A stretch of DNA of 64,000 bases from an uncultured bacterium (GTDB lineage Bacteria; Zhuqueibacterota; QNDG01; CAYUAG01), in assembly GCA_964515295.1 (NCBI GenBank), contig CAZETW010000001.1, positions 367 to 64,366 on the forward strand, given 5' to 3'. The translations under genes and the position numbers were made by a program. The notes below the pieces were generated by a model. The model made no database searches, was not told the DNA's origin, and saw only the letters and a program-made list of their open reading frames with translations. The stretch's first letter is position 1; every line of letters begins with the position of its first letter. This document shows, piece after piece, positions 16,291 to 33,340 of the stretch.

Positions 16291-16465
16291 ATTCCCCTCA
16301 ATCATATTCTGAATGACATAATTGTATTCCAATGCTATGAGACTGAACAAGGCTGCAGTTTTTGAGCGGATGTATTCATCGACTGGTATCTTGAATATAT
16401 CATACCTATGTTTTTTGTGTGGTACCACCTTTTGGTCTTGTTAATGATACCTAATAAGACCATAA

Positions 16466-18614: not shown

Positions 18615-18733
18615 TAGTATAATAACTTCTTATGATTAAATATATAATGCTAATTCATATAAAAATTTAAAAAAATTGTAATCCTTTAAAACAAACAGGA
18701 AAATTAATTGATTATTCAGCTTTATAAAAAATT

Positions 18734-21700
18734 CTATTTCAATTTAACCATCTTAATAACTTCAAACTTTTCCTTGCTGCTCAATCTGCAAAAATACAAA
18801 CCGCTTACCACCTCATTACCATTATCATCCAATCCGTCCCATTTAATATCATATTTACCCCGATTCTGCATTTTATCAACCAAACATCTGACCATCCTTC
18901 CCTTGGAATTATATATCATCAATTTGATCCAACCACTCTTTTCTATTTGATAATTAATTGTAGTTTCCGGATTAAAAGGATTGGGATAATTGGATATCAA
19001 TTTAAAGTTTAACTGGTTTTCAAAATCATCATTAATACCTGTATGAACAACAAAATTATCTTTATAATATTCAGAATTATTAATACACCAATATTTACAC
19101 TCAATATTAGTCTCCTGTTTCTGTTGAGATATATACCTAAAATAAACTTTTAAAAACTCCTGAATATCTTTAACTGGTTCTAAGCCAAATAAGGCAATTT
19201 TAATTTCACCTGAAACAGAATTATTATATATAAGATGGAATTTTTCAAGAGATGTATTCTTTTCAATATCAACAAATTCAAGAATCGTGGGATCATACTC
19301 TAACCATATATTTGCAGATAAAAGAGAAGATTCATTGGTAACGAGCAAAGGAAGACAGAATTCATCATTCCCGTCAGTTTTTACTATTGTTGGAGAATTA
19401 ACCGTTACAGTTTTTCCAATTTTCTTCTTTTGATTCCAGTCACCATCTATATCACCCAGAATATAAGAAGTAAAGTCTTGATCAGTAATATGTTCCGATA
19501 CATAATTACAGGTCTGGGATTCAGGATAAAAACGCCATGCCCCAGCTTGAGAAGATTCTGAATCAGTAATCCCTATTGATTTTTTGGCAATATAAACAGC
19601 ATCAAGCATATCAATGATGCCGTTTGTGTCTACATCAGCTGCTTTTAATGAATATCCTGACAATGAATCTAATCCAACTGTATGCCGTGCAGCCAAAACT
19701 GCATCATATGCTGAAATTGTAAAATAGTCAATGTCTTCATCTTTTTCTTTATAAGCAGAGACAGTAATACTGTCAGATTTTGAAACTTCAGGAAAAATAT
19801 AATATCCCTTACTATCGGTAATACTCTCTTTGTTTACAGTACCCTGCATCTGAAGTTGTGTGTCTGACACACCTGCACTATCCTGATAATATATTACTTC
19901 ACCAGAAAAAGAATAATCATTGACCCCTGTATCAATTATTATATTATTCTTTTCATATTCTGTGTTGTTAATTCTGAAATACTGCCACCGCAGAGTTGTT
20001 TCTTCAATTTCCTTAGTAATAACTCTAAAAGTGAGAGTGATAAACTGTTCAGTATTTTTCCTATATTTTGTACCGAACATTACGATCTTAAACATTCCCG
20101 GGATAGAATCATTATAAGTCATATGAACATTTGTCAAGTCCTCTGATTTATGTATGTCAATTAATTCAAGAGCAGATTCATTGTATTCACCCCAAATATC
20201 TGCACAACCCAGTGAATCTCCTTCATTAAGGCTCAAAGGAATGCTGAATTCATATGCTGCTGTTAAAATTCTATCAGCTGCAATACTATTCTTATCATGA
20301 ACCTTTTCAAATTTTACAGATTGCGCACTTTGATAATTTAACCAATCACCGTTAACATCTCCAAGTATATAAGCAGTAAAATCTTTTTCAACATTTTCCT
20401 TAATGTTTTCACAGAAGAAAGACACTGGTGAAAACTTCCATTCTCTTGCACCTGAAAACTCCTGATCATCAACATCAACCGCTGCTCTGGCAATGTAGTG
20501 TGCATCCGACATCTCTATACTGCCATTGTTATCAACATCTGCAGCCTCGGCAGCTATCCCATATAAATGTTCTATATTAACTGCATGCCGTGCGGTCAAA
20601 AAAGCATCATAAGAAGAAATGACCAGACCTTCAACATCTTCTGCCTTCTCTTTAGAAGGAGTGACTGATATATTATTACCAGCCTTTATTCCCAGAAACT
20701 GATATATACCGCTATTATTGGTAAATGTTTCATCCTCTTTTCCACCCTGCATTTTCATTCTTACATCAGGAACAAATTTATTGTGTTTAAAATACTTGAC
20801 TTTTCCGTTAAAAGAAAATGTCCTGAGATCAAGTAAGATATCTTCCTTCTCAAACCAAGTATCATTAATTCTGTAATGTTGCCAATACATTTGTGTTGTA
20901 TCATCTATAACATCAGGAATTATATTAAAAATTATCTGTATGAATTCATCTTCTTCCCATACCGACACTGAATTGAACAGAGCGATCTTTAAAATACCGG
21001 GAACACTGCTATTATACACCAATTGAAAATCATCGGTTAATGAAGTAGTTTTAATATCCTGAACTGAGAATAAGGACGGATCGTATTCTAACCATAAATC
21101 AGAAGATAACATCAGCATATTCCCAGGCAAAGTCAGCCCGATAGTAACAGTGCTGTCACCATGATAAACCTCATAATAATCATGGTTATGTATCACCTTA
21201 TTGTTTATTGACCCCTCTGGTGTAGTCCAGTTACCATCCACATCACCTAAAAGCCAGGAAACAAAATTCTGTCCCCCGAAATTTGATTCCATCATTCTTT
21301 CTATATGAATCTGAGGAGGATCAAATTTCCAGTCTCCAGCCCGAGAACCATTGCTGTTGGGCAATCCTACTGCCTTTTTGGCTATCAATAAAGGATCTGT
21401 TTGATCAATAATATTATTTTCATTAACATCTGCTGCCTTTGCAGAAAAACCTGTTAGATTTTTTATCCCTTCAGCTGCACGGGCAGTTAATGCCGCATCA
21501 TAAGCAGAAATTGTACATTCTCCAACATCTGAATCACTGGTCTTGAAAGCTGTTATATTTAAATTGTTGTATCCTCTATCAACCGGAAATTTATATAAAC
21601 CATTATTATTTGAATATGTATCCAATGACTTAGAACCGCTTATCTGAAGCTTAACAGATGGTACGTCTCGGTTTTGCTTATAATAATCGACCTTTCCACT

Positions 21701-23260
21701 AACGATAAAACTATGGTAATACACCCTGTCTTCTTCTGTAATAGTAATAAAGGTATCAGCTGGTACTAACATTTCTCTTTGAACAATACCACTCGGCCAG
21801 TAAATAATCAGACTGTCAACCACACTGTTTCCAGCCAGTCCAAATTCAACCGGTAAACTGTCCATTTTATATCCATCCCCGCCCAAAACCTGCCTCATTT
21901 GCAGCTTTCCGTTTGTATATGCAACTACCCTGGAACTTATTCCGTCTCTGTTGGATTCGTCTCCAACCAGTTTGACATGCAGCCAGTGATTTTCACCACC
22001 TGAATTCTCAAATAATGTTGTATAGTACTTAGGAGGATCTTTATCAGTTCTTGCAAGAAAAATATCAAGATAACCGTCCTGATTATAATCTGCAATCGGG
22101 GCTGAATAATTAAAACGGGTATTTTCTTTGATGTTTGCACTTCCGGCAACATCAGTAAAGGTTCCATCCCCATTATTCCTGTATAAACGAAAACCTGATC
22201 CTAAACTGGAAACTACCAATATATCAATATATCCATCATTATTGAAATCGGCTACAGATAATCCTCCTCCATAAGGGGCACGACCAAGTTTTTCCCATAA
22301 ACCGGATCCCTGGGTCACCTCAGTAAAAGTACCGTCTTTGTTATTCTTGTACAGTATTGATTTATCATCACATCTCCTGGTATAGAGATCAAACCATCCA
22401 TCATTATTGTAATCTAAAAATATTGCTCCATAAAATCTGTTTTGTTTTACTATCCCCCGCTCTTCAGTTTCCTCAGAAAATGTACCATCTCCGTTATTTA
22501 TAAACAGACGACAATCTGTTTCATAATTAGCATCAAAAAAATCCATATAACCATCATTGTTGATATCAGCAAATGCAAATCCCCAGATATCCTTAGAATC
22601 ACGGATATAATCTAAGCCTGCCTCTTTACTTTGAAGTAAAAATTTTGCATTATCAATATTTCTGTAAACCAGTAAAGAAGGATTACTATACCGGGTGTCA
22701 CCAAAACTGAATAAATCCAAAAGACCGTCATTATTATAATCCACAAATGCAACATTTCTTCCTCTGTTTTTATGATACACTTTGGAATTATTGGTAGCAT
22801 TCCAGAAAATACCATCATTATCCTGCCAGTATAACAGTACTTTTTCTGTTGGATAGTGACCATTAGCAATCACAAAATCTGTTTTTCCATTATTATCAAA
22901 ATCTGCTGCTGCAAATCCCTGAGCGCTTGTACGCGGACTGGAGCCCGAAACTCTGGCCTGCTTGGTTACATTTTTAAACGTCCCGTCTCCCATATTCTTG
23001 AGGAGAGCGTGAGGAAGATTCAACCCGGACCAGTCTCCAAAACTTTCATTATGCACTATAAATATATCAGGCAAATTATCTCCGTTATAATCAAAGAAAC
23101 CAGATCCGTGCGTATTGCATACTACATTAGTTTTGGTTTTCCCTCCGACATTTTTAAAATGTATCTTTTGAGTTTGTGAAAAAAGCATCTGATCACCAAA
23201 CAAACTGCAAATCAGGAGTATTGAAACTTTTAAAATTATTTTCTTCATATTACTACCCAT
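18734..23260 (-). CDS. T9SS-secreted 1508-aa protein: CRTAC1-like FG-GAP/VCBS repeats + ASPIC/UnbV domain, three ~300-aa tandem modules with dockerin-like Ca-loops, C-terminal T9SS sorting domain
   Basis: Signal peptide. Seven D-x-N-x-D-G-x-x-D repeats, then the UnbV/ASPIC block (GGENHWLHVKLVGDESNRDGI..GDGY..S.....FGL....V..L.IYWPSG). Three paralogous modules each carry IS(A/S)YDA.L(T/A)AR...AADV(N/D)xNG.I(D/E) and ILGDV(N/D)GDW. The C-terminus NYPNPFNPETTINYQ...KLMIYNSKGRMV is a type-A T9SS CTD. Confidence 0.8.
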   Translation of the reverse strand: MGSNMKKIILKVSILLICSLFGDQMLFSQTQKIHFKNVGGKTKTNVVCNTHGSGFFDYNGDNLPDIFIVHNESFGDWSGLNLPHALLKNMGDGTFKNVTKQARVSGSSPRTSAQGFAAADFDNNGKTDFVIANGHYPTEKVLLYWQDNDGIFWNATNNSKVYHKNRGRNVAFVDYNNDGLLDLFSFGDTRYSNPSLLVYRNIDNAKFLLQSKEAGLDYIRDSKDIWGFAFADINNDGYMDFFDANYETDCRLFINNGDGTFSEETEERGIVKQNRFYGAIFLDYNNDGWFDLYTRRCDDKSILYKNNKDGTFTEVTQGSGLWEKLGRAPYGGGLSVADFNNDGYIDILVVSSLGSGFRLYRNNGDGTFTDVAGSANIKENTRFNYSAPIADYNQDGYLDIFLARTDKDPPKYYTTLFENSGGENHWLHVKLVGDESNRDGISSRVVAYTNGKLQMRQVLGGDGYKMDSLPVEFGLAGNSVVDSLIIYWPSGIVQREMLVPADTFITITEEDRVYYHSFIVSGKVDYYKQNRDVPSVKLQISGSKSLDTYSNNNGLYKFPVDRGYNNLNITAFKTSDSDVGECTISAYDAALTARAAEGIKNLTGFSAKAADVNENNIIDQTDPLLIAKKAVGLPNSNGSRAGDWKFDPPQIHIERMMESNFGGQNFVSWLLGDVDGNWTTPEGSINNKVIHNHDYYEVYHGDSTVTIGLTLPGNMLMLSSDLWLEYDPSLFSVQDIKTTSLTDDFQLVYNSSVPGILKIALFNSVSVWEEDEFIQIIFNIIPDVIDDTTQMYWQHYRINDTWFEKEDILLDLRTFSFNGKVKYFKHNKFVPDVRMKMQGGKEDETFTNNSGIYQFLGIKAGNNISVTPSKEKAEDVEGLVISSYDAFLTARHAVNIEHLYGIAAEAADVDNNGSIEMSDAHYIARAAVDVDDQEFSGAREWKFSPVSFFCENIKENVEKDFTAYILGDVNGDWLNYQSAQSVKFEKVHDKNSIAADRILTAAYEFSIPLSLNEGDSLGCADIWGEYNESALELIDIHKSEDLTNVHMTYNDSIPGMFKIVMFGTKYRKNTEQFITLTFRVITKEIEETTLRWQYFRINNTEYEKNNIIIDTGVNDYSFSGEVIYYQDSAGVSDTQLQMQGTVNKESITDSKGYYIFPEVSKSDSITVSAYKEKDEDIDYFTISAYDAVLAARHTVGLDSLSGYSLKAADVDTNGIIDMLDAVYIAKKSIGITDSESSQAGAWRFYPESQTCNYVSEHITDQDFTSYILGDIDGDWNQKKKIGKTVTVNSPTIVKTDGNDEFCLPLLVTNESSLLSANIWLEYDPTILEFVDIEKNTSLEKFHLIYNNSVSGEIKIALFGLEPVKDIQEFLKVYFRYISQQKQETNIECKYWCINNSEYYKDNFVVHTGINDDFENQLNFKLISNYPNPFNPETTINYQIEKSGWIKLMIYNSKGRMVRCLVDKMQNRGKYDIKWDGLDDNGNEVVSGLYFCRLSSKEKFEVIKMVKLK
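19018..21718 (-). repeat. Intragenic triplication: three ~900-nt tandem modules inside the 1508-aa cargo gene
   Basis: Protein-level periodicity of ~300 aa (module starts near aa 515, 816, 1116) with conserved motif order. DNA identity looks diverged, so the copies are old paralogous modules rather than recent duplicates. Confidence 0.6.
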
Positions 23261-23289
23261 AATATAAATTACATATAATATTTCTTAAT

Positions 23290-24327
23290 TTATGCAAAAG
23301 GTATTTTAGTCATCGTATAATCCGGATCAGGATGTATGGTGGCAGTCCATATCATAGCTTTACGCATAATATTTCCGATCAAAGGCCAGGACTTCATTCT
23401 ATGTACGCTCTGAGCAAGAGATCTGCTGTAATCAAACGGAGGCTGAGAGTAATCATATTCATGCAGTCTCTGATACCGATCACAAAAACCCCATCGTTCA
23501 ACCAATTTATTAGGGGACTGAGTTTTAAATTTCACGATAATTTCTTTTTTCTTCTGTAATTGAGCATCTGTCATTTTTAAATAATAAACCTTGTCATTAC
23601 GCACAGGTTCAGGAGGATAATCATAACTGACTAATGGTATAAATCGTGTAAGTCCTGATAAAATCTTTTCCGGAGTTGTTTTAAAAGACATAAAGAAATT
23701 ATATATTGGCGATTCATAAACAGCGCAACGCAAATCCAGCTTATCTAAAGCTTTACTGACCATATAATTTGTCACATCATGCTGATAATGTCCACCCTCA
23801 TAAAGAGGTATAAATATTGTTTCTGGTCTTGCCCCTTTTATATATGTACTGATCCGATCGATACCTTCATCAATTTCATCTCTGGTGAGAAAACTTTCAT
23901 TATTCGTATAGGGCAAAAATTCTATTGTTACTGAATCTTTCCCTAAAACAGACCAAGCATCTAATGCCTCCTGTTTACGGGTAACCTTATCATCTTTATA
24001 GCCATCAGTAGTATAAAGAATGTTCACATGTCCCCCCTTTTCAACTGTCTGAACTGCATATCCCCCGGCCAAAGCAACACAATCATCCTGATGAGGAGCA
24101 ATAATCAAAATATTCTCACCATGTGACTGAATAAATGTTTTATTTTGATTTCTTATCTTATAGAATAACCACATAACAAATGCTGAATACATCAAAAATA
24201 AAAAACATACACCACACACCAATAATTTTAACCATAATGAGACAGGTATTACAAATACCACAATTAGGATAATTGAAGAAACCAAAATTAAAACTATCAT
24301 TCTTAATGTAAAATTTTTACTTGCCAT
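23290..24327 (-). CDS. PIG-L / LmbE-family (CE14) N-acetylglucosaminyl deacetylase with N-terminal membrane anchor
   Basis: Two N-terminal TM helices, then ILIIAPHQDDCVALAGG (the family HPDDE-type motif) and a downstream His-x-x-Asp metal-ligand block (GGHYQHD). 30 nt upstream of the 1508-aa cargo gene. Confidence 0.78.
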   Translation of the reverse strand: MASKNFTLRMIVLILVSSIILIVVFVIPVSLWLKLLVCGVCFLFLMYSAFVMWLFYKIRNQNKTFIQSHGENILIIAPHQDDCVALAGGYAVQTVEKGGHVNILYTTDGYKDDKVTRKQEALDAWSVLGKDSVTIEFLPYTNNESFLTRDEIDEGIDRISTYIKGARPETIFIPLYEGGHYQHDVTNYMVSKALDKLDLRCAVYESPIYNFFMSFKTTPEKILSGLTRFIPLVSYDYPPEPVRNDKVYYLKMTDAQLQKKKEIIVKFKTQSPNKLVERWGFCDRYQRLHEYDYSQPPFDYSRSLAQSVHRMKSWPLIGNIMRKAMIWTATIHPDPDYTMTKIPFA

Positions 24328-24332
24328 TACCT

Positions 24333-24566
24333 TTAATTCTTTTGAATAACTTTATAAATTTTTTCAATTGTTGAAAAATTATCTTCTGTTATATCCTCAA
24401 TTTGTATCACAACATTCAAATGTTCATCAATATAAGAAAGAAATTCTACAATCCCATAAGAATCAAGTATATTTTTCTCAAACAAATCTTCATCATCCTC
24501 AGGCGAATAATCACTATATTCTTTAAAAAAATCTCTCAATGTCTCTTTAATATGATCTTTATCCAT
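24333..24566 (-). CDS. Stand-alone acyl/aminoacyl carrier protein (ACP/DltC-like)
   Basis: 77 aa, acidic, with a putative phosphopantetheine-attachment serine in the LDSYGIVEFL helix-II context. Sits between the acyltransferase and deacetylase genes with 5-12 nt gaps. Confidence 0.55.
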   Translation of the reverse strand: MDKDHIKETLRDFFKEYSDYSPEDDEDLFEKNILDSYGIVEFLSYIDEHLNVVIQIEDITEDNFSTIEKIYKVIQKN

Positions 24567-24578
24567 TAATCCCTCATA

Positions 24579-25439
24579 TTATAAATTAAATAATACCAGC
24601 TCAGAATACAGATTGTCAATATCATATCTCCTCAGTTCAGAAGACCTGAATAATGGTTTATTTTTTAACTTTAATTTTTTGGAAAAAGCAACTCTCCTGC
24701 CTTCTATAAAACGCTCATCAATGACTATTGCCAGAACTTTAAACTTAGAACATAACCAAAAACGAAATGAATTAAAATACTTGTTAAATACTTCTAAATC
24801 ACTAATATAATGAACTCTGGCCATGAGGAACGGCATTTTTTTTCTTACCATCCTCGTCATTACAATATAACACTTTCCCTTTGAAGTTTTAATTAATATA
24901 TGATGACAATATCTGAATTGATGATCAAGAAAAATACTCCTGTTATGATCATCCAGTTCTTTGTTCACTACTTTTTTATCTTCAATAAAAGAAATATCAG
25001 GAAATCTCTTTATTATATTCGGTAGAGGAAAAATAAATCTGTAATAAGATTCAAGCTGCTTAAATCCAGCTCTCTTTAAAAGATTATACACTTCCTTAGA
25101 TGGAGTAAAATCTGTAATAGTATATGATTTCAGTTTTAGGACAGGCTGAAGCATAAAAATACTCTTACTCCGGTATTTTTCATATACTATCCAAGAGGTT
25201 AAATTACAAAATTTATACTTTTCTCCATTTATTATTCGTTGATTGAATAAAAGCCCTAAAAATCCTACTGCCTCATTCTGATCCATCATAATGTATCCAC
25301 AATACCCTTCATCTGTATCCCAGTTCTGATAAAACAGTCTTTTCCAATCTTTCCGGGTCATATAACGGGCATTGAAATCCTTTAATAAAGGATATATCAA
25401 TTCAAAATCTTCTTTTACAGCTTTTCTTATTTTGGCCAT
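24579..25439 (-). CDS. GNAT-fold / Fem-like acyltransferase (hypothetical)
   Basis: 286 aa. N-terminus MAKIRKAVKEDFELIYPLLKDF is GNAT-like; size and organisation resemble FemXAB/VimA-type aminoacyl or acyl transferases. No strong motif identification. Stop overlaps the decarboxylase start. Confidence 0.4.
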   Translation of the reverse strand: MAKIRKAVKEDFELIYPLLKDFNARYMTRKDWKRLFYQNWDTDEGYCGYIMMDQNEAVGFLGLLFNQRIINGEKYKFCNLTSWIVYEKYRSKSIFMLQPVLKLKSYTITDFTPSKEVYNLLKRAGFKQLESYYRFIFPLPNIIKRFPDISFIEDKKVVNKELDDHNRSIFLDHQFRYCHHILIKTSKGKCYIVMTRMVRKKMPFLMARVHYISDLEVFNKYFNSFRFWLCSKFKVLAIVIDERFIEGRRVAFSKKLKLKNKPLFRSSELRRYDIDNLYSELVLFNL

Positions 25440-25442
25440 GTA

Positions 25443-26690
25443 TTAACTCACACTTGGTATTTTCTTTACGTTATCATAACCATAAACCATAATCTCAACA
25501 GGTTCAGGATGTGATAAAAACAAGAGAGGACTTGCGGTAAGCGCATAGGCTCCTGAATTCATGAATCCGATGTAATTCCCTCTAGTTACCTGAGGTATCT
25601 CTACCTTACTGCCCATAATATCAATTGTTGTACATAAAGGCCCCACAAAAGTAACAAATTCGGATTTTTTATTATCAGGATTAGAAAGATTGATAATTTT
25701 AAAATTCTTTCGTATAACCTGCCCGAAATTCCCACTGGCTGCCAAATGATGGTTCATTCCCCCGTTAAGCACACAATATACTGTATCTCTGGAATTCTTT
25801 TTATCAACCACTTGAGTAATATAATACCCTGCTTCAGCCATTATAAATCTGCCCAGTTCTATAATACCGGTAAGTGTTGGTAAATTTTGCTTTTTTTTAA
25901 AATCAGAAAATACTTTACTTAAAGTAATGGATACATCCTCAGCAGGCAGACTGCTTTGTTCTTTATAATAAGGCACTCCAAATCCGCCTCCGAAATTAAT
26001 CTGCTGAGGCACAACACCGAATCCTTTAATAAATGTTTTTACAATTTTCATTGTATTCTTAAAATTATTTATCAGGGCTTCAGGTATCAGACACTGCGTT
26101 CCGGAATATACATGATACCCGACAAAATTACAGTTACTGCTTTTCTCCAGCAATGCAAAAAATTCTCCGCAGCTCTCTTCATCAATTCCAAACTGTGAGG
26201 ATCTGCCGCCCATTTTAATAGCAAATTCCTTAAATACCTGTGCCGGATTTATTCTCAAAGAAACATTAGCATTAGTATTTAACTCCTCAGCAATCTTCTG
26301 GATTCTTTTCAATTCGTTTATGGATTCTATACTGATAGATCCGATGTTATGTTTAATGGCCTCTTTTAATTCATCATCACTCTTTCCCGGTCCGGCAAAA
26401 CTCATATACTCAGCCTTAAATCCTCCCTTCAGGGAAAGCTGTAATTCTCCCCCTGAAGAAATGTCCGCACCGTCTGTCTCCTGACTGAGCATGTTAAGCA
26501 GTTCTGTATTGGGATTTGCTTTTACTGCATAATATAATTCAATATCATCCCCTAAATTATTTTTTAACATTCTGATCCGATCCCGGACAAAACGCATATC
26601 GTACACATAACAGGGTGTTCCATATTCCATAACAATTCTGATGAGATCAATTCCTTTAAAAGGGGTTGTAATTGTGTCTGCTTTACTCAT
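25443..26690 (-). CDS. PLP-dependent decarboxylase, Orn/DAP/Arg decarboxylase family 2 (LysA/BtrK-like)
   Basis: PLP-lysine motif YYAVKANPN near the N-terminus, TIM-barrel plus beta-sandwich organisation, C-terminal GPLCTTIDIMG and SGAY blocks equivalent to LysA GPLCESGD/GAY. Confidence 0.85.
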   Translation of the reverse strand: MSKADTITTPFKGIDLIRIVMEYGTPCYVYDMRFVRDRIRMLKNNLGDDIELYYAVKANPNTELLNMLSQETDGADISSGGELQLSLKGGFKAEYMSFAGPGKSDDELKEAIKHNIGSISIESINELKRIQKIAEELNTNANVSLRINPAQVFKEFAIKMGGRSSQFGIDEESCGEFFALLEKSSNCNFVGYHVYSGTQCLIPEALINNFKNTMKIVKTFIKGFGVVPQQINFGGGFGVPYYKEQSSLPAEDVSITLSKVFSDFKKKQNLPTLTGIIELGRFIMAEAGYYITQVVDKKNSRDTVYCVLNGGMNHHLAASGNFGQVIRKNFKIINLSNPDNKKSEFVTFVGPLCTTIDIMGSKVEIPQVTRGNYIGFMNSGAYALTASPLLFLSHPEPVEIMVYGYDNVKKIPSVS

Positions 26691-28254
26691 TGTTACACTC
26701 TTGCATAACCTTTGTCCGGTCGATCTTGCCGTTGGAAGTCAAGGGAAAATTGTCCCGCACCACGATATCATCCGGAACCAGATAAAAGGGGAATTCCTGT
26801 TTGCACTTCATGAGGATCTTTTCAGCTGACCACTCAGCATTGTTTAATTGTATAATTGCTCTTAAGTTAATACTATCATTTTCCTCATATCCGGTTACCA
26901 CACATTCTGCCACACCCTCAAAATTATTAATAAGTTCTTCAACTTCACTGGGACTTACCCGATACCCCTTTGTTTTTATCATATTATCTTTCCGGCCTAT
27001 AAAATATAGGAATCCATCCTCATCCTTTTTTACAATATCCCCTGAAAAAACAACCGTTTCCAGATGAGCATTCCTTTTTGAAAGAAAGGGATTAGGTTTA
27101 AATACCTCTCTTGTTTTTTCAGGATTATTCCAGTACCCTTTGGAGATCAAGGCGCCTCTGTGTATAAGTTCTCCCTCTTCATGAGGGCCACATTCTTTGC
27201 CTTTTTTATTGATAACCATTAACTGAACATTCGGAACTGCCTTTCCTATAGAATCAGGACGACTATCGATCTGAGCAGGATCAAGATATGTTGATCTGAA
27301 TGCCTCAGTAAGTCCGTACATAAGATATATCTTTGCCTGCGAAAATAAACTTCTTAGTTTTTTGACTGTAGATACCGGTACTTTTCCACCTGTATTGGTA
27401 ATGACTCTGATCCTGGAAAAATCATAATTTTTAGACAAATCAGTTAATTTAGGATGAAATATCTTAGACCATATAGGTGTCATGCCGGCAAATACAGTTA
27501 TCTGTTTATTATCAAGAATCTGTAAAAGATCATTGGGTAGAAAAAATCTGTGCAGATATATTGTTGCCCCCATATACAGAGTATTGATTAACTGATTAAA
27601 TCCGTAATCAAAATTGAATGGTAAAGCACCGATCATTCGATCATTAGATTTTAAACCGGTATACTGACTGACAATTTTACCACCATCAATTGTGTTCCGA
27701 TGAGAAATCACTATTCCTTTTGGCTGTCCGGTTGAACCGGATGTATATATAATATGTGAAGTATCCTCACTTATACGACAACACTCACTATTATATTCCG
27801 GCAGAGAATCCCAGGTCCCGTCAAATACAATTGTTTTTTTAAAAATATCAGTATTATCTCCATAAAACACTAATGCTCTCTCTACACCTGCGTTTTTAAA
27901 CACTGAAAAATTATTCCTGATCCTTTTATGAGAAGTAATAATAGTTGATATCCCGGCATCCTTGATAATATGGTATATCTGTTTCTCTCTCAGGATTGAG
28001 TTTATGATAATCAGCACAGCACCAGCATAAAATACTCCTAATATAGAAACCACCTGATCTATTGAACGGTCCATGAATACACCAATATGTTCTCCTGGTT
28101 TTACACCCAGATCCTGTAACCTTCCGGCTATTTTCCGGGAATAATCAACAGTCTCTTTATAAGTAAGGCTGTTATCAGCTTCTTCCAGACAGATTTTATC
28201 AGGAAATTTTTTTCCTGATTCTTCCAGTAAATGTTGTATTAAATATGGCCGCAT
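26683..28254 (-). CDS. AMP-dependent synthetase/ligase (adenylate-forming enzyme; DltA / acyl-CoA-synthetase superfamily)
   Basis: IIYTSGSTGQPKGIVISHRN (A3 core), YGLTE, SGD, and GRKDNMIKTKGYRVSPSEVE (A8) motifs. 8-nt overlap with the decarboxylase start. Confidence 0.9.
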   Translation of the reverse strand: MRPYLIQHLLEESGKKFPDKICLEEADNSLTYKETVDYSRKIAGRLQDLGVKPGEHIGVFMDRSIDQVVSILGVFYAGAVLIIINSILREKQIYHIIKDAGISTIITSHKRIRNNFSVFKNAGVERALVFYGDNTDIFKKTIVFDGTWDSLPEYNSECCRISEDTSHIIYTSGSTGQPKGIVISHRNTIDGGKIVSQYTGLKSNDRMIGALPFNFDYGFNQLINTLYMGATIYLHRFFLPNDLLQILDNKQITVFAGMTPIWSKIFHPKLTDLSKNYDFSRIRVITNTGGKVPVSTVKKLRSLFSQAKIYLMYGLTEAFRSTYLDPAQIDSRPDSIGKAVPNVQLMVINKKGKECGPHEEGELIHRGALISKGYWNNPEKTREVFKPNPFLSKRNAHLETVVFSGDIVKKDEDGFLYFIGRKDNMIKTKGYRVSPSEVEELINNFEGVAECVVTGYEENDSINLRAIIQLNNAEWSAEKILMKCKQEFPFYLVPDDIVVRDNFPLTSNGKIDRTKVMQECNNE

Positions 28255-28264
28255 ATTCTCTGTC

Positions 28265-31200
28265 TCATCTTAAGAGTATACATTTTCTTTTCTTTAAGGC
28301 TTTATCCGTTCTTAAAATATAAAAATAAATCCCACTGCTTACATCTCCCCCCGCATCATTAGTGCCATCCCAGATAATAGTATGTTTTCCTCTGCCTTTT
28401 ACTCCCTTACACAATGTTTTAATATGCTGTCCTCTGGTGTTGTATACTGATAGTTCTATAATACAATTATGGGGGACAGAAAACTCAATCATTGTTTCAG
28501 GATTAAAGGGATTCGGCTGATTCTGTTTTAATATATAATCTGCCGGGATCTCACCAGCTTCATCAATATCAGTGGTTTTTCTCATTTCTGCCGTTACATT
28601 TCTCGGAGCACTCATGATAATTTCATCCGGATTATAACTGCCGGTTAAATCTCCCTTCCAGTTAACAAATTCAAATCCCGGTGCAGAGTTGACCTGTACT
28701 GTTACGATTGAATCTTTATAAAACCAGTCCGATTCAGGCAGCATCACACCACCCTCAGGAGGAGTAACAGAAGTTGACAGATAGTATTTTGTCAGAAAAA
28801 ATGCTCTGTATAAACTGTTTACCCCCGCCTCTATTGTCTGTACTCGTTTTCCTTTGTTGTTCCACTCATTAAATATAAATTTCACCCCGCTTAAAGGGCT
28901 GTATGAATCAGTTGTTCCGATTGTATGAATTGTCCCCGAAATCCATTTGAATTGCTTTGGTGATATATAGGTTGTACCATCAACAGTGATTGGAATTCCC
29001 TCCGGATCAGTTGTTACAGTAACTGTACCACGTATAATAAAATGAGCACATATATTTTTGGGATTGTCAATAAAAATGTCAGCCGGATTAGTATTTCCGC
29101 TGAGATCCCCGCTCCAGTAGGAAAATTCATAATCCGTATTCTGTGCAGGTTTTGCAGTTATTGTTACCTGTTCACCTTTATTATACCATTCATTACCACT
29201 GCTGAACTGTATAGATCCTCCCCAGGCTGGAACTGTGGATGTGGTAACTTTATATTGCAAATCCCAGCGAGCTTTCTCAGTCACAGGATTATTAATAATT
29301 ATAGTGTGAGAGATATCCTCTCCACTGTATGCTCCTTTTCCAATTCCGATCCATTCAACAAATACATACTGTGAATCACCTTCCATAGTAATAACAGGAG
29401 GAGCAATGGAAAAAACAGCCTCGGAACCCTCCTTATACCAGCCGTCTCCCTGAGTAATACCATGCCCTGAATTGTCAACTGTAAGATGATGTTGTTTCTG
29501 CCAGTTTGCAGTTACTGTTTTAGGAGAATCCATTATCAATAAAACCACAACTGATGTATCTCCCTGCGCATCATCTGACCAATTGAGGAATTTGTGCCGT
29601 GTTTGATCGTCATAGTGATATCTGTCTACTGAAATAACAGCGGTGGAATCCCGGTTATACCACCTCTCACCTTCAGGGTTGCCGTAGGATGAGTTTACTA
29701 TAAGATAGTATTGAGTGAAATAACGAGCAGTAACCGTACTGTTCGTGAGAGGGACAGTATATAACTGACGCTTTTCTCCCTGGTTGCTCCAGGTGTTAAA
29801 TTTATAGCGGGTTCTATTATCCAGAGATTGCACTGAATCTGCATCAAGATAATGTTCTGAATCTTCTAACCAGGTAAAAGTGTGTGAATCAGTATATAAA
29901 GTATCATCTGCAGTAAATTCCAGTCCCGGCGGATCAGTAGTGATGGTAACCTGGATTTCTTTTTTAAAATTAGCAGTAATATCTTTGGGCTTTGATACAG
30001 TAATGATTACAGAACTTTCAGTACTGGACAGGTCACCGGACCAGCCGGTGAATTTATACCCCTCTGCCGCAGAGGCATTCAGACCTACTTCACTGTCTTC
30101 TTCATACCAGCTACCTGGTGGTGAAGGAGTTATATCTCCCCCCTCATCAGGCTGTTCTGACAGAGAAAGATAATGCCTGGTGATCCAGTGAGCATTAATG
30201 ATCTTGGCATCATCCATGATCACAGAACCGGAAGTTGCAGTCCCGGAATAATCTCCGCTCCAATGGTCAAAAAAATACCTGGTTAAATTATCTCCGATAG
30301 GTGAAGTCAGAGAAAACGAGGCTGTTGTATCTGAGTCATACCATTTTTCACCCTGTGGATTCCCATATGGAGAATTAAGGGTGAGATAATATTGGGTGTC
30401 CCAGGAAGCGGTAATGATTTTGGGGCTTTCCATGGTTACTGAACCGGAAGGATCTGCCCCGCTGTAATCCCCTCCCCAGCTGTTAAACAGATAACGGGTA
30501 GTACTGTCAACATCCGGAGTCGTAACTGAAAAAGATACATTCTGATTTTCATCATACCATCCTTCCCCCTGAGGATTTCCGTGTGGAGTATCAAGTGATA
30601 AATAGTACTGTTCTTTAAAGTTAATGCTCAGATTATCATTAGCACCCGGAACATGATAATTGCGCGCTATATCTTCTGCTCCATCACTCCAGGAAGAAAA
30701 CACATAACGGCTGCCCTGACTGAAAGGCTGAGGAGATTCAGCCTTTAAATAATATATACTGCCTTCAGTCCAGAAAAAAGTATGCGGGGCTGTATATAAT
30801 ACAGCATTAGCGTAAAATTGTAATCCCGGAGGCTGAGTGCTGATGGTAATATAGACTTTTTTACCAAAGTTTGCATAAACATTCTTGGGTTCTGACATGG
30901 AAATGGTAAGAGGATTCTTATCCCCGGATACGCTTCCTGACCACCCGGTAAACTCATAACCACTGAACGAAGCAGCACTCACCGTAATACTACTATCAGC
31001 GTCAACCCATTGTCCGGGAGGTGAAGGGATGATAGTACCGCTGGCATCAGGATTAATTCCGGTAGTTAAGAAATACTGCACAGCCCAGACAGCAAACACA
31101 GTTTTACTTGTGTCCATAACAACAGTTGCAGTAGCAGTAGAATCATAATGATCTCCCATCCAGTTATCAAAAATATATTTAATTGAATAATCTATTACTG

Positions 31201-31672
31201 GTGATGTAACAGAAAAGGTTGCTGAACTATCAGCATCATACCATCCTCCGCCCTGAGTATCCCCGTGAAGTGAAATAACTGTCAGTTTGAACTGTTTTTT
31301 AAAATATACTGTTAAGGTATCATTATAACCCGGAACACTATAGATGTGAGTTTGTTCTCCACCATCTTCCCAGTTTTTATAAACATACTTAAATTCACTG
31401 CTGCTGTCTTGCGGGGATGGTGCAGAAAGCAAATATGTATCCCCCTTGCTCCATTGAAAAGTATAGGGGGCAGTATATTCAACACTGTCAACCTCAAATA
31501 CTAAACCAGCTGGATTTGTATTAATGGTGATTGAATAAGTATCATTTTTTTCAGCCTTAAGCGGATCAATCGGGGGGGCTCGATCGCCAGCAAATAAATT
31601 ACTCACCATGGATACAATGATTAAATATATAAATAATAAAAAAAAATTATAATTTCTATTTAGCAAATACAA
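28265..31672 (-). CDS. T9SS-secreted 1135-aa protein built of divergent InlB B-repeat (Listeria-Bacteroides repeat) units
   Basis: Signal peptide. Repeated Y.LT....P..GG.I.PS.P..W.........A....GY.F.GWSGD.SG..NP..I.M...K...A.F units. C-terminus QNQPNPFNPETMIEF..ELSVYNTRGQHIKTL...GIYFYIL is a T9SS CTD. Confidence 0.8.
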   Translation of the reverse strand: MYLLNRNYNFFLLFIYLIIVSMVSNLFAGDRAPPIDPLKAEKNDTYSITINTNPAGLVFEVDSVEYTAPYTFQWSKGDTYLLSAPSPQDSSSEFKYVYKNWEDGGEQTHIYSVPGYNDTLTVYFKKQFKLTVISLHGDTQGGGWYDADSSATFSVTSPVIDYSIKYIFDNWMGDHYDSTATATVVMDTSKTVFAVWAVQYFLTTGINPDASGTIIPSPPGQWVDADSSITVSAASFSGYEFTGWSGSVSGDKNPLTISMSEPKNVYANFGKKVYITISTQPPGLQFYANAVLYTAPHTFFWTEGSIYYLKAESPQPFSQGSRYVFSSWSDGAEDIARNYHVPGANDNLSINFKEQYYLSLDTPHGNPQGEGWYDENQNVSFSVTTPDVDSTTRYLFNSWGGDYSGADPSGSVTMESPKIITASWDTQYYLTLNSPYGNPQGEKWYDSDTTASFSLTSPIGDNLTRYFFDHWSGDYSGTATSGSVIMDDAKIINAHWITRHYLSLSEQPDEGGDITPSPPGSWYEEDSEVGLNASAAEGYKFTGWSGDLSSTESSVIITVSKPKDITANFKKEIQVTITTDPPGLEFTADDTLYTDSHTFTWLEDSEHYLDADSVQSLDNRTRYKFNTWSNQGEKRQLYTVPLTNSTVTARYFTQYYLIVNSSYGNPEGERWYNRDSTAVISVDRYHYDDQTRHKFLNWSDDAQGDTSVVVLLIMDSPKTVTANWQKQHHLTVDNSGHGITQGDGWYKEGSEAVFSIAPPVITMEGDSQYVFVEWIGIGKGAYSGEDISHTIIINNPVTEKARWDLQYKVTTSTVPAWGGSIQFSSGNEWYNKGEQVTITAKPAQNTDYEFSYWSGDLSGNTNPADIFIDNPKNICAHFIIRGTVTVTTDPEGIPITVDGTTYISPKQFKWISGTIHTIGTTDSYSPLSGVKFIFNEWNNKGKRVQTIEAGVNSLYRAFFLTKYYLSTSVTPPEGGVMLPESDWFYKDSIVTVQVNSAPGFEFVNWKGDLTGSYNPDEIIMSAPRNVTAEMRKTTDIDEAGEIPADYILKQNQPNPFNPETMIEFSVPHNCIIELSVYNTRGQHIKTLCKGVKGRGKHTIIWDGTNDAGGDVSSGIYFYILRTDKALKKRKCILLR

Positions 31673-33074
31673 CCTTTCTCATTTTTATTATATCATCTGC
31701 TTTAAAACTGATAATATAAACACCAGAACTCAGAGAATTATTATAGTTATCCTTTCCGTTCCAAACTACTGAATGACTGCCAGACATCATATACTCATCA
31801 ACTAATTTTTTTATATATCTTCCCTTTAAATCATAAACGTCAATGTTTATATAAGCTGATGTGGGTAAATGATAATCAATTCTGGTCTGAGAGTTAAAAG
31901 GATTGGGATAGTTTTGAAATATTTTAAACCCTTTCACCGGATTAAATTCCGGGTCCCTAATATCCGTATACGGTACAGTTAATGTCCTGTATTTATCATT
32001 GCACCATACTGCATTTCCATTAGTATCTATCGCCTTGACACTCCAGTAATATACGCCTTCTTCAACTGTAAAAATTAATAAAATCGATTCTCTGATAAGT
32101 GATGTATGTTTTCTTAAAATCCCGGATTGAAAAGTTGAATCTGTTCCTAAATAAAATGTATAGGTTATGGAGTCATTCTTGTCTACATTCACCGATTCTT
32201 CCCAAAAAAATTCAATTTCATTCTCTCCACTCTGTATTATAGTATCCTGGGGACTTATTAAGCTGAAGGGAAGAGGATCATCTTCTACGGGAAGAACCGT
32301 TACTTTAAAAGTATCAGAATCAGAGTAATTATAAATATCAGAAACAATTATTATTAAAGTTGCCACCCCACTCCAGTGTGGATCGGGTATTAAGGTTAAA
32401 TTTGGTTTTTCATAAACACAGGTAAAGTAATCACTGCCCTGAATACTTATATCCAATTCATCAATGGTATTATCAGGATCACCTATATGAGAAACAATAT
32501 TAAAAGTATAAGTACTGTCTTCGAAAAATTTTATATCATCAATCGTAGTAATATAAGGCGGTTCGTTGTGAATAATGTTCAGTCTTGCTCCAGATTCGGA
32601 AGAAATTTCCGTTTCGAGCTGTCCCTGAACATCATAGAATAAGGCCTTTTGAATATTAATATCTGTTTTACGCTCTACATCCTTAATAACCCGGACATCT
32701 ATAAATAATAAGGTATCAAGGCTGTCCAGAGCATTAATGAATAATGATTCTGTAGAAAAATTAACTACTCGGAACTCTCCGGTCAAACGATTATAAAATG
32801 GTTCGCCCCAATCTTCGGCTAAGGTACCTTTCTGAGAGACACCGTATATTTCAATAAGTTCAGGGTTATAATTAAACTGCAGATGATACGCCACTATAGT
32901 ATCATCAACTGCAGAACTAAGCTGAACCGGCAGTGAAAACTCATAATTATAACATACCGTTGAATCAGGGATACTAATACTAATTTGACTCATTAATGAT
33001 TCTAAAGTAACCAAAGTATAAAAAAAGACTGATATAACAGCTATTATATTTTTTCTATTAAAATTCATCTTCAA
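31656..33074 (-). CDS. T9SS-secreted 472-aa protein with Ig/FN3-like domains
   Basis: Signal peptide. C-terminus FQNYPNPFNSQTRIDYHL...IDVYDLKGRYIKKL...GVYIISF is a T9SS CTD. Stop overlaps the start of the 1135-aa gene by 17 nt. Confidence 0.75.
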   Translation of the reverse strand: MKMNFNRKNIIAVISVFFYTLVTLESLMSQISISIPDSTVCYNYEFSLPVQLSSAVDDTIVAYHLQFNYNPELIEIYGVSQKGTLAEDWGEPFYNRLTGEFRVVNFSTESLFINALDSLDTLLFIDVRVIKDVERKTDINIQKALFYDVQGQLETEISSESGARLNIIHNEPPYITTIDDIKFFEDSTYTFNIVSHIGDPDNTIDELDISIQGSDYFTCVYEKPNLTLIPDPHWSGVATLIIIVSDIYNYSDSDTFKVTVLPVEDDPLPFSLISPQDTIIQSGENEIEFFWEESVNVDKNDSITYTFYLGTDSTFQSGILRKHTSLIRESILLIFTVEEGVYYWSVKAIDTNGNAVWCNDKYRTLTVPYTDIRDPEFNPVKGFKIFQNYPNPFNSQTRIDYHLPTSAYINIDVYDLKGRYIKKLVDEYMMSGSHSVVWNGKDNYNNSLSSGVYIISFKADDIIKMRKVVFAK

Positions 33075-33340
33075 AATAAATGTATAACAATTTTAATTTG
33101 TTTTCAACCAATTAATCGATATTCTTTTCACTTTTATGTCCACCCTCTTAATATATTAAATTTCTCAGTTCACAACAAAATTTTGCCCACGAAAAACTGT
33201 ATTGTATTAATTATTAAAGTTTTAATTTCCGTGGGCTTCATTTTTAATGATTTTACTCACTTTTTATTTATATTTAAAGTTTCAGCACACTGTATCCCCA
33301 TAAATTTTCTTATGTAAATTCCAATCAATTACATCTATCA

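Follow-up and report, generated by a model that had tools for sequence, protein, structure and literature searches.

The linking sugars known so far are N-aminoacyl amino sugars, and their synthesis has been proposed to require a deacetylase and an acyltransferase (VimE and VimA), sometimes joined by the amidotransferase WbpS (PMC7468200; PMC11969387). A precedent for carrier-dependent processing of an amino acid is given by VinN/VinL/VinO and by FlvN, where adenylation is followed by carrier loading and PLP-dependent decarboxylation on the carrier (PMC11284099). Here we analysed a 64,000-nucleotide stretch of DNA (the window) in which a five-gene cassette lies between genes for T9SS cargo. 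From the encoded proteins and their relatives we propose, with moderate confidence, that the cassette specifies a cytoplasmic, carrier-dependent module which exchanges the N-acetyl group of an amino sugar for a short omega-aminoacyl group in a surface glycan. A sequence-only reading of this DNA had proposed a carrier-based variant of the linking-sugar pathway; that interpretation is partly supported, and a role of the cassette in cargo anchoring is plausible. The layout, the family and fold assignments, the conserved catalytic motifs and the genomic associations reported below are direct observations.

The cassette and its flanking cargo genes

The cassette encodes an adenylate-forming ligase predicted to load the carrier with an amino-group-bearing acid (26683..28254, 523 aa), a PLP-dependent decarboxylase whose predicted substrate is the amino acid on the carrier (25443..26690, 415 aa), a tandem-GNAT acyltransferase that belongs to an uncurated family and is predicted to N-acylate a freed sugar amine (24579..25439, 286 aa), a stand-alone carrier protein (24333..24566, 77 aa) and a membrane-anchored de-N-acetylase of the PIG-L/LmbE (CE14) type (23290..24327, 345 aa). 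All five are minus-strand genes and lie at exactly the coordinates given by the sequence-only reading. The first 8 nt of the decarboxylase gene overlap the end of the ligase gene, and gaps of 3 nt (decarboxylase/GNAT), 12 nt (GNAT/carrier) and 5 nt (carrier/PIG-L) follow. The stop of a 1135-aa cargo gene lies 10 nt from the ligase ATG, as had been described along with the overlap, but the distance from the PIG-L stop to the ATG of a 1508-aa cargo gene is 29 nt rather than the 30 nt reported. From this spacing we infer that the cassette and the cargo genes are co-transcribed; a promoter and terminator scan performed no better than on shuffled sequence. Given that this set of genes is found together again in about 12 related contigs, the arrangement is not due to chance, and as these loci are phylogenetically close, conserved adjacency is partly a matter of inheritance.

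The 1508-aa protein (18734..23260, minus strand), a conserved neighbour of the cassette, is a beta-propeller protein of the FG-GAP/ASPIC type that also carries cohesin and dockerin modules (Pfam FG-GAP_3, UnbV_ASPIC, Cohesin and Dockerin_1), a signal peptide, a T9SS type A sorting domain (TIGR04183, 28.7 bits; cut-off 23) and the tail NYPNPFNP. Directly upstream of the ligase is a Flg_new_2-repeat cargo protein (28265..31672, minus strand, 1135 aa; Flg_new_2 165 bits, TIGR04183 23.2 bits against the cut-off of 23), homologues of which also adjoin the cassette in related loci L003, L004 and L052 and are absent from the arrangement in L009, L053 and L060. Two more cargo genes, for proteins of 472 and 2552 aa (31656..40999, minus strand; TIGR04183 32.8 and 38.1 bits), complete the cargo block; they accompany the cassette together only in L003, L054 and L056, an association limited to the closest relatives. 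Among the other products of the window is a PorV/PorQ-family protein (150.6 bits against a cut-off of 90). Lysine-type genes occur elsewhere in the window: aspartokinase (16466-17626), an M20 deacylase (17610-18614), asd (41244-42380) and an aminotransferase (42370-43671).

Activation, carrier loading and decarboxylation

The ligase matches Pfam AMP-binding at 255 bits, and its top NCBIfam match is TIGR03098 ('acyl-CoA ligase, exosortase A system-associated'; 572.5 bits, cut-off 592.35). Its solved relatives comprise NRPS A domains, beta-aminoacyl-carrier synthetases, FadD and DltA. In adenylating enzymes an Asp of the A4 motif binds the amino group of the substrate (PMC11284099). This Asp is kept in the cassette enzyme, which supports its assignment as a putative amino-acid-type adenylating enzyme. 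Two pocket motifs, FNFDYGxNQ (with Asp216) and MYGLTEAFRS (with Arg320), show no variation among 119 homologues that are 45-100% identical, and the constancy of the two residues implies a single, constant substrate.

By overall similarity, fatty-acyl-CoA ligases are about as near to the cassette enzyme as amino-acid A domains, with nearly equal scores for the respective models (277.7 vs 257.9 bits). This is a point in favour of an N-acyl-amine lipid pathway, in which the ligase would form fatty-acyl-AMP, the GNAT would serve as an N-acyl amino acid synthase and a free amine would come from the decarboxylase. N-acyl amino acid synthases are, moreover, linked to PEP-CTERM/exosortase systems. We nevertheless regard this pathway, the alternative offered by the sequence-only reading, as very improbable: the FDxG Asp typical of amino-group-binding enzymes is invariant, the decarboxylase is nearest to a carrier-dependent enzyme, BtrK, and the neighbouring genes encode glycosyltransferases, a flippase and sugar deacetylases, a glycan context rather than a lipid one.

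The 77-aa protein had been taken for a carrier, and its conserved serine and likeness to DltC bear this out, although its match to Pfam PP-binding (19.1 bits) falls just below the cut-off of 20.8. It matches the DltC model NF003464 at E 9e-10 and the solved DltC structures 8jf2 and 6bug at E 1e-5, with the serine of its LDSYG motif (Ser36, the predicted phosphopantetheine site) in register with that of LDSMG in DltC. Asp35-Ser36-x-Gly38 is invariant across 10 orthologues.

The decarboxylase contains Orn/DAP decarboxylase domains (Orn_Arg_deC_N and Orn_DAP_Arg_deC, 132 and 62 bits). Its nearest solved structure is BtrK (E 1e-81, 278 bits, residues 17-402), an L-glutamyl-[BtrI carrier] decarboxylase whose substrate is glutamate attached to the carrier; diaminopimelate decarboxylase structures, in contrast, reach at most 171 bits. 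The carrier-protein logic proposed earlier thus gains support. A housekeeping LysA with four unrelated neighbours would be in keeping with the lysine-type genes in the window, but this we consider extremely improbable, since the lysA model scores 265 bits (cut-off 297.9) against 436.9 bits for TIGR03099 ('exosortase A system-associated'; cut-off 478.45), and since the decarboxylase is still fused to the ligase in relatives' loci that have no lysine genes. Ligase, decarboxylase and carrier each score slightly under the curated cut-off of their own best family. As ligase and decarboxylase are near-members of the uncharacterised TIGR03098/TIGR03099 pair, the core of the cassette is already described, and the claim that it was 'previously undescribed' falls.

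These data allow us to propose the first half of a mechanism. The ligase would take an acidic alpha-amino acid (aspartate or glutamate), adenylate it at the side-chain carboxyl and pass it as a thioester to the phosphopantetheine on Ser36 of the carrier, where the BtrK-like enzyme would strip the alpha-carboxyl to leave a beta-alanyl- or gamma-aminobutyryl-S-carrier.

Transferase and deacetylase

The transferase has a weak GNAT sequence score (18.6 bits), and its structural model is a confident tandem-GNAT fold (pLDDT 92). No Pfam or NCBIfam family was reached at cut-off, which also speaks against the N-acyl amino acid synthase required by the lipid pathway. It had been called 'GNAT/Fem-like', and the first half of that label stands; for the second, there was no sequence match to the Fem or VimA families and Fem structures were absent from the top matches of the fold search. 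Some members of the GNAT family are found without carrier, ligase or decarboxylase, so that reliance on a carrier-bound donor need not hold throughout the family.

A CE4 deacetylase is encoded within 6 kb of the GNAT-family gene at 26 of 37 loci of other phyla, often only 14-73 nt away. These cytoplasmic CE4 proteins are without signal peptides or transmembrane segments. At cassette loci of the FG-GAP-linked clade CE4 is absent and PIG-L stands in its place. The cassette PIG-L matches PF02585 at 57.6 bits (cut-off 28.2), its motifs APHQDDC and (H/N)YQHD are invariant in 7 orthologues, and a hydrophobic segment (residues 3-58) with basic residues at either end fits two helices. The pairing with CE4, its substitution by PIG-L and the Wzx/glycosyltransferase clusters of relatives lend contextual support to the earlier idea that an amino sugar is deacetylated and then re-acylated, though PIG-L could have a substrate other than the sugar. 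VimE had been cited in that connection as a CE14/LmbE enzyme, but it belongs to CE4 (PMC7468200).

In the remainder of the proposed mechanism, the membrane-anchored PIG-L would de-N-acetylate a membrane-bound HexNAc, probably polyprenyl-linked, at the cytoplasmic face, and the tandem GNAT would move the aminoacyl group onto the freed amine. The completed glycan would then be flipped (by Wzx in relatives) and displayed, with a flexible arm that bears a free primary amine. We infer all of these steps from homology and context, and with them the identity of the substrate, the step order, the acceptor sugar and the coupling to cargo.

Genomic context and the target of the modification

In L051, L052, L053 and L060 the cassette sits amid genes for an epimerase, GT2 and GT4 glycosyltransferases, a Wzx flippase and an Asn-synthase-type amidotransferase. 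Together with the GNAT-CE4 pairing, and with the surroundings of the module in L024 (beside a Kdo transferase and an LpxL-type acyltransferase) and L028 (a polysaccharide cluster), these clusters point to a surface glycan as the target. In the window itself no glycosyltransferase or flippase lies beside the cassette, the nearest glycosyltransferases being a GT4 and an ArnC-like GT2 about 18 kb off.

A different target would be expected of a Dlt- or Alm-like system, in which lipid A, the LPS core or another polymer is aminoacylated for positive charge (for example in cationic-peptide resistance) and the adjacency of cargo genes is functionally meaningless. The likeness of the carrier to DltC, its nearest, fits such a role, as do the deltaproteobacterial locus L024, where the beginning of the GNAT gene overlaps one for an LpxL-type lipid A acyltransferase, with a Kdo transferase adjoining, and L042, where kdsC, kdsB and kdsD follow the GNAT. 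We judge this role unlikely. The nearest relatives have the cassette in Wzx/glycosyltransferase clusters with cargo genes inside, FG-GAP/ASPIC adjacency outlasts three rearrangements, and no DltB/MBOAT or AlmG/LpxL-type match was seen among the window ORFs in a scan not aimed at these families.

A surface-glycan module of the kind we favour is genetically coupled to T9SS-exported FG-GAP/ASPIC proteins in this KSB1-like lineage. Each of the 12 informative loci in the FG-GAP-linked clade has a sorting-domain gene of this family beside the cassette or interleaved with it, across three different gene orders. The link to cargo proposed earlier is therefore real for FG-GAP/ASPIC proteins, whereas other cargo is not consistently linked. 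Given this coupling, the FG-GAP/ASPIC proteins probably act on, bind or attach to the glycan, and the linkage hints that the modified sugar is the attachment point of sorted proteins.

That last option corresponds to a linking-sugar pathway, in which the aminoacylated sugar would come first in the glycolipid that the T9SS sortase PorU joins to the C-termini of cargo through an amide bond, the terminal amine of beta-alanyl or gamma-aminobutyryl replacing the seryl, glycyl or alanyl amine of Porphyromonas, Tannerella and Prevotella. We hold this to be possible, if doubtful. A primary amine is expected at the end of the product, sorting-domain cargo always adjoins the cassette, and both a deacetylase and a tandem GNAT are present in the clade. 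A general anchor, however, would serve all cargo, and the consistent link is limited to FG-GAP/ASPIC. Furthermore, VimE is a CE4 enzyme and VimA matches TIGR03019, whereas the cassette, with its PIG-L (CE14) and tandem GNAT, matches neither family; nor were wbpA/B/D/E-type genes seen in the window. The carrier-ligase-decarboxylase-GNAT core also occurs in cyanobacteria and in delta- and gammaproteobacteria, phyla not known to have a T9SS, an occurrence of the kind that the sequence-only reading had named as counting against its proposal. The core is found, too, in LPS and polysaccharide clusters with no sorted-protein gene nearby; in L028 it lies inside an ABC-transporter-type polysaccharide cluster.

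Two further associations are in line with cargo anchoring. The ligase, decarboxylase and GNAT families also flank a PEP-CTERM protein gene, with PrsT alongside, at an XrtA locus of a gammaproteobacterium. An Asn-synthase-type gene is also present in L009, as in L053, L060 and L051; the L009 gene, the one tested, has TIGR03108 as its best match, which is reported to be the top conserved-domain match of the Asn synthases of PEP-CTERM loci and the family of WbpS (PMC7468200/PMC11969387).

Cassette layout and neighbouring genes

The five-gene layout described in the sequence-only reading was confirmed, with ORF coordinates exact. By its adenylosuccinate lyase homologues, the uncultured source bacterium has its nearest named relatives in candidate division KSB1. 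All five genes lie on the minus strand: the adenylate-forming ligase (26683-28254), the PLP decarboxylase (25443-26690), its first 8 nt lying within the end of the ligase gene, the GNAT-like protein (24579-25439) after a 3-nt gap, the 77-aa carrier (24333-24566) after a 12-nt gap and the PIG-L protein (23290-24327) after a further 5 nt. The upstream 1135-aa cargo gene stops 10 nt ahead of the ligase ATG, and the downstream 1508-aa cargo gene starts 29 nt past the PIG-L stop. A scan of 16000-35900 for consensus promoters and terminators gave counts equal to those of shuffled sequence, neither favouring nor disfavouring read-through, so it is from gene spacing alone that we predict co-transcription of the cassette with the cargo genes.

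Four large flanking proteins match TIGR04183 (cut-off 23 bits) at 28.7, 23.2, 32.8 and 38.1 bits, and all four combine a hydrophobic N-terminus (signal peptide) with an NYPNPFNP tail, identifying them as T9SS type A cargo. The largest of the neighbouring cargo proteins (2552 aa; 33341-40999, minus) has a GDSL lipase/esterase at its N-terminus, together with a GH115 C-terminal-like domain, fn3, six Big_1/invasin repeats and the type A sorting domain. A PorV/PorQ-family protein is encoded in the window as well, which indicates that a T9SS is present. This 976-aa protein is an unusual fusion: it starts with a PorV/PorQ-family barrel (NF033709, 150.6 bits, cut-off 90) and continues into CARDB and OmpA-like domains. 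Its gene is directly downstream of one for a VWA/DUF11 protein that bears a T9SS sorting domain (the pair at 57404-60334 and 60344-63271, both minus).

The cargo-plus-cassette block spans 22 kb and is flanked on both sides by aspartate-family genes. At 16466-18614 (minus) an aspartokinase gene and that of an M20 ArgE/DapE-type deacylase overlap by 17 nt, and at 41244-43671 (plus) lie genes for aspartate-semialdehyde dehydrogenase and a PRK08637-type aminotransferase. Among close relatives (L003, L004, L012) the M20/aspartokinase pair always comes after the FG-GAP gene; it is absent from that position in three other related loci (L052, L053, L060). An Rfam scan of the whole window (1-64000) returned no family at gathering score, and hence no riboswitch ahead of the aspartate-family genes.

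Predicted on-carrier decarboxylation and amino sugar N-acylation

The best family for the ligase is TIGR03098 (ligase_PEP_1, 'acyl-CoA ligase, exosortase A system-associated'), aligned over the full length (residues 5-517 on model positions 1-515 of 517) at 572.5 bits, just under the curated cut-off of 592.35 bits. The decarboxylase likewise falls just short of TIGR03099 (dCO2ase_PEP1; 436.9 against 478.45 bits), with lysA at 265.2 bits. The two genes adjoin and overlap as they do for bona fide members in L042, an XrtA locus whose ligase reaches 780 bits, and many ligase homologues are named exosortase A-associated by JGI or NCBI. A small carrier gene precedes the ligase in an exosortase-type locus (L072), in a deltaproteobacterial one (L024) and in two relatives of the cassette (L052, L053). 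The sequence-only reading had called the cassette previously undescribed, which for its core these families contradict: the ligase/decarboxylase pair is already curated, uncharacterised, as exosortase A-associated. Searches of the literature on exosortase with ligase, decarboxylase or carrier, and on TIGR03098/TIGR03099, found no functional study. The window differs from such loci in its context, which is T9SS cargo and not exosortase/PEP-CTERM, and in the PIG-L and FG-GAP partners specific to its clade.

The ligase pocket motifs FNFDYGxNQ and MYGLTEAFRS, with Asp216 and Arg320 among their residues, are invariant in the top 119 homologues (45-100% identity). In amino-acid adenylating enzymes the counterpart of Asp216 binds the substrate amino group (PMC11284099), and the invariance of the pocket implies one constant, amino-group-bearing and probably acidic substrate. 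Solved relatives of the ligase are mixed, comprising NRPS adenylation domains, beta-aminoacyl-carrier synthetases (~155 bits), FadD and DltA. A seemingly special likeness to the glycine-activating domain of LgrA (295 bits) was rejected, as that score is the sum of two A-domain matches (129 and 157 bits).

Among solved structures the decarboxylase comes closest to BtrK (E 1e-81, 278 bits), which decarboxylates L-glutamyl-[BtrI carrier], while the best diaminopimelate decarboxylase reaches only 171.6 bits. From this closeness the enzyme is predicted to act on a carrier-tethered aminoacyl group, and its reading as a LysA was rejected on the scores and on gene contexts in relatives. The alternative that the ligase activates fatty acids and the transferase is an N-acyl amino acid synthase was rejected because of the Asp in the ligase pocket, the BtrK-like partner enzyme and the setting among glycan genes; no Pfam or NCBIfam profile of N-acyl amino acid synthases (exosortase-associated acyltransferases) matched the GNAT protein or its homologues.

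The carrier resembles DltC. Ser36 of its LDSYG motif aligns with the serine of the DltC LDSMG motif, and D35, S36 and G38 are invariant in 10 orthologues, giving an Asp-Ser site at the start of helix 2. Two features had been proposed as marks of a carrier in the 77-aa ORF; the conserved serine is present, whereas a Pfam PP-binding match lies just under the cut-off (PF00550, 19.1 against 20.8 bits), and the DltC model NF003464 is also below its cut-off (38.5 against 68 bits). The L024 orthologue passes PF00550 at 26.7 bits.

The deacetylase belongs to PIG-L/LmbE (PF02585, CE14; 57.6 bits, cut-off 28.2), and its His/Asp motifs AP-H79-Q-D81-D82 and Q182-H183-D184 are invariant in 7 orthologues. 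Its N-terminus is a hydrophobic segment consistent with two helices and bounded by basic residues at both ends, a topology that would have the catalytic domain face the cytoplasm from the inner membrane. The transferase has a tandem GNAT fold, whose top fold matches are GlcN N-acetyltransferase-like, Eis-like and NMT structures. Membership of the Fem/VimA group, as first suggested for this protein, was rejected by sequence and by the top fold matches: no Pfam Fem family matched (PF13480 and PF02388 considered) and Fem structures are absent from the top 50-60 fold matches. Neither the protein nor its 39 homologues matched any NCBIfam family at E<=1, TIGR03019 included.

These data allow us to propose a mechanism. 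By analogy, the ligase would attach an acidic amino acid to the stand-alone carrier through the side-chain carboxyl, and the PLP decarboxylase would strip the alpha-carboxyl from the tethered residue. A ligase pocket that stays constant, a DltC-like carrier and a decarboxylase of BtrK type together predict a single product, which should be beta-alanyl- or gamma-aminobutyryl-S-carrier. PIG-L would free the amine on a membrane-bound HexNAc, and the aminoacyl group would be moved to it by the tandem GNAT, yielding a glycan with a primary amine on a flexible arm. As substrate, a polyprenyl-phosphate HexNAc from an ArnC/PgfS-like type of enzyme would suit the membrane-anchored deacetylase. The biochemistry first proposed finds support for the most part, is sharpened to on-carrier decarboxylation, a glycan target and a deacetylase/GNAT pairing, and loses its Fem-type transferase. 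Some 18 kb from the cassette, genes at 45080-48191 (minus) encode a methyltransferase, a GT4 and an ArnC/PgfS-like GT2 of the polyprenyl-phosphate sugar transferase type, which scores 196 bits with the ArnC model, below its cut-off.

The predicted carrier-bound product draws on two published precedents, in both of which an acidic amino acid is joined to a stand-alone carrier via the side-chain carboxyl before a PLP enzyme takes off the alpha-carboxyl. In butirosin biosynthesis (BtrI/BtrJ/BtrK/BtrH) carrier-bound glutamate is decarboxylated to gamma-aminobutyryl and then moved to an amino sugar amine; the cassette shares the BtrK-type decarboxylase, the stand-alone carrier and, as its predicted end point, amino sugar N-acylation. 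BtrJ is an ATP-grasp ligase, whereas loading here would fall to an adenylate-forming ligase and transfer to a tandem GNAT; the hydroxylase and the gamma-glutamyl protecting-group enzymes are lacking, and the predicted product is a cell-surface glycan, not an antibiotic. VinN/VinL/VinO and FlvN, which make macrolactam starter units, combine adenylation of (3-methyl)aspartate (aspartate for FlvN), carrier loading and on-carrier PLP decarboxylation (PMC11284099). Their three-part logic, with an adenylate-forming enzyme, is that proposed here, but the cassette lies among glycan genes in its relatives and has no polyketide synthase, second aminoacylation enzyme or dipeptidyl transferase. DltA/DltC and AlmE/AlmF/AlmG also use an adenylating enzyme and a small DltC-like carrier to bring an aminoacyl group to an envelope polymer. 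The cassette adds a decarboxylase and a deacetylase to this scheme, its final transfer is predicted to be cytoplasmic, GNAT-catalysed and to an amine and not a hydroxyl, and none of the scanned window ORFs fell in a family of DltB/DltD or AlmG type.

Distribution of the module and of its cargo partners

A genome scan with the GNAT alignment retrieved 39 loci, from Omnitrophota, Ignavibacteria, Chloroflexota, Cyanobacteria, Nitrospinota, Latescibacterota, Verrucomicrobiota, Acidobacteriota, Chlorobiota, Gemmatimonadota and delta/gammaproteobacteria. In 26 of the 37 loci beyond the window's lineage, the GNAT gene has a CE4 deacetylase gene no more than 6 kb away, often only 14-73 nt, and none of five CE4 proteins examined has a signal peptide or transmembrane segment. 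The window's clade has no CE4 by the GNAT gene and PIG-L in its place, which makes the conserved unit a cytoplasmic sugar deacetylase with a tandem GNAT, the same logic as proposed for VimE/VimA. The window's own CE4 polysaccharide deacetylase (459 aa; 2298-3677, plus), next to a TPR protein, has an N-terminal extension of ~225 aa without family match.

Loci where both ligase and decarboxylase accompany the GNAT are cyanobacterial (L022, L028, L046), deltaproteobacterial (L024) or gammaproteobacterial (L042, L044); the ligase comes without the decarboxylase in cyanobacterial L032, a short contig, in deltaproteobacterial L019 and in gammaproteobacterial L038. The core module is therefore not confined to T9SS organisms, and the sequence-only reading had taken such an occurrence as evidence against it. 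In L024 the module adjoins Kdo transferase and LpxL-type acyltransferase genes, with CE4, GT2 and carrier present, which suggests that its target in this lineage may be LPS core or lipid A; there, at 8977-10855 in an uncultured deltaproteobacterium, the LpxL-type lipid A acyltransferase gene follows the Kdo transferase gene and overlaps the start of the GNAT homologue. The cyanobacterial L028 holds the module in an ABC-transporter-type polysaccharide cluster, again with CE4. In one Pyrinomonadaceae MAG (L005, 697-3983) a MaoC-dehydratase/short-chain-dehydrogenase fusion stands ahead of the GNAT homologue and a CE4 deacetylase 14 nt after it; carrier and ligase are absent from this locus, which hints that other GNAT-family members use a CoA-bound, non-acetyl acyl donor.

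A genuine XrtA locus is found in L042 (gammaproteobacterial MAG, 1356-10831), where PrsT and a PEP-CTERM protein gene directly adjoin full-scoring TIGR03099 and TIGR03098 members, after which come a radical SAM gene, a GNAT-family member and kdsC/B/D. A scan of all retrieved loci for the PEP-CTERM motif found it only there, with a variant in L038, so PEP-CTERM linkage is not general among them; the variant, a SEP-type PEP-CTERM-like tail in a second MAG (7027-7974), lies 2.5 kb from the GNAT gene. The exosortase-type locus L072, with EpsI, includes the carrier, the ligase and the decarboxylase, but its candidate transferases are of other kinds. Neither exosortase nor PEP-CTERM genes occur in the 64-kb window, in which only part of the genome is visible, or in the retrieved parts of related contigs.

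Close relatives (66-90% GNAT identity) share the entire synteny, housekeeping neighbours included, so that conservation among them proves little. The informative loci are more distant relatives with 58-68% identical ligases. In L052 the order is methyltransferase, oxidoreductase, radical SAM, epimerase, GT2, GT4, Wzx flippase, methyltransferase, carrier, ligase, decarboxylase, GNAT, PIG-L, FG-GAP/ASPIC cargo and Flg_new_2 cargo. L053, L009 and L060 have GT4, Wzx, carrier, ligase, decarboxylase, GNAT, FG-GAP cargo, PIG-L, FG-GAP cargo and an Asn-synthase-type gene, after which L060 has five further glycosyltransferases; in L051, Asn synthase, epimerase, GT4 and Wzx genes stand ahead of the cassette. 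The cargo genes of these relatives therefore sit inside a glycan gene cluster.

PIG-L-linked loci were collected by a PIG-L-seeded metagenome scan, then tblastn. An FG-GAP/ASPIC sorting-domain gene is adjacent in all loci whose PIG-L is at least 47% identical and whose flank is usable, and in 12 of 12 informative loci when GNAT-anchored loci are included, in three gene orders. The link between cargo and cassette has outlasted rearrangement. PIG-L homologues of 41% identity or less (L062-L071) lack the cassette.

Relation to linking sugars and protein sorting

The T9SS linking sugars described in the literature are amino sugars with an N-seryl, N-glycyl or N-alanyl group, and an amide bond joins their free amine to the C-terminus of the cargo (PMC7468200; PMC11969387). 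They are proposed to be made by VimE and VimA with an optional amidotransferase, WbpS, a reported TIGR03108 member (PMC7468200; PMC11969387). The Wbp/Vim route of Porphyromonas and Tannerella resembles the scheme predicted for the cassette in deacetylation followed by N-aminoacylation of an amino sugar and in its tie to C-terminally sorted cargo. An Asn-synthase-type gene in relatives of the cassette recalls WbpS; where tested, in L009, its product best matches TIGR03108, 'XrtA/PEP-CTERM system amidotransferase'. The two also differ. VimE is a CE4 enzyme (PMC7468200) and not CE14/LmbE as first stated, whereas the cassette deacetylase is CE14; VimA matches TIGR03019 (pepcterm_femAB), whereas the cassette GNAT matches no Fem model; the Wbp/Vim pathway as described names no carrier protein, ligase or decarboxylase (PMC7468200); and the group predicted here is omega-aminoacyl, not alpha-aminoacyl. 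The cassette is best seen as a variant on two established themes, carrier-dependent aminoacylation and linking-sugar-type glycan tailoring.

Could the cassette, then, make the aminoacyl group of a T9SS linking sugar, to which PorU joins cargo C-termini? The idea is attractive, since the module is predicted to give the same kind of product as the Vim route by a different, carrier-based route, and since the enzyme set neighbours T9SS cargo in one phylum and PEP-CTERM cargo in another. However, a consistent link exists for the FG-GAP/ASPIC family only, the core module is also found at loci with no sorted-protein gene close by, and none of the defining Vim/Wbp families matched in the window, the WbpA/B/D/E-type families for 2,3-diacetamido uronic acid synthesis being absent from the ORFs scanned. 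We therefore advance this anchoring role as a tentative hypothesis, and a somewhat doubtful one. It is equally economical to suppose that the FG-GAP/ASPIC propellers bind or process the modified glycan. PorZ, a T9SS beta-propeller with a sorting domain, presents A-LPS to PorU, a precedent that makes a glycan-presenting or -binding role possible for the propellers.

The authors who described the linking sugars noted Vim-like genes in PEP-CTERM loci and speculated that such enzymes make the unknown exosortase acceptor (PMC7468200). A bolder proposal, which we consider unlikely, is that the amine-tipped sugar of the module is the covalent acceptor in two unrelated sorting systems: T9SS, through PorU, in the KSB1-like lineage, and exosortase A/PEP-CTERM in proteobacteria. 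If true, it would explain 'exosortase A-associated' enzymes beside T9SS cargo, identify the long-sought exosortase acceptor and join two protein-sorting systems through one glycan chemistry. The cassette as a whole is of value because it offers a concrete link, open to test, from T9SS to exosortase sorting. The function of a widespread 'exosortase A-associated' ligase and decarboxylase, curated for years, is now directly testable, as is the attachment partner of sorted surface proteins outside Bacteroidia. For unusual N-acyl groups on surface-glycan amino sugars, a candidate route of general reach is the large tandem-GNAT family, which is uncurated, with its CE4 or CE14 deacetylase partners.

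Elsewhere in the window, 53097-55887 (plus) encodes LarE (sacrificial sulfur transferase, 328 bits), a 251-aa ORF and the nickel insertion protein LarC; LarE and LarC serve the nickel-pincer cofactor of lactate racemase-type enzymes.
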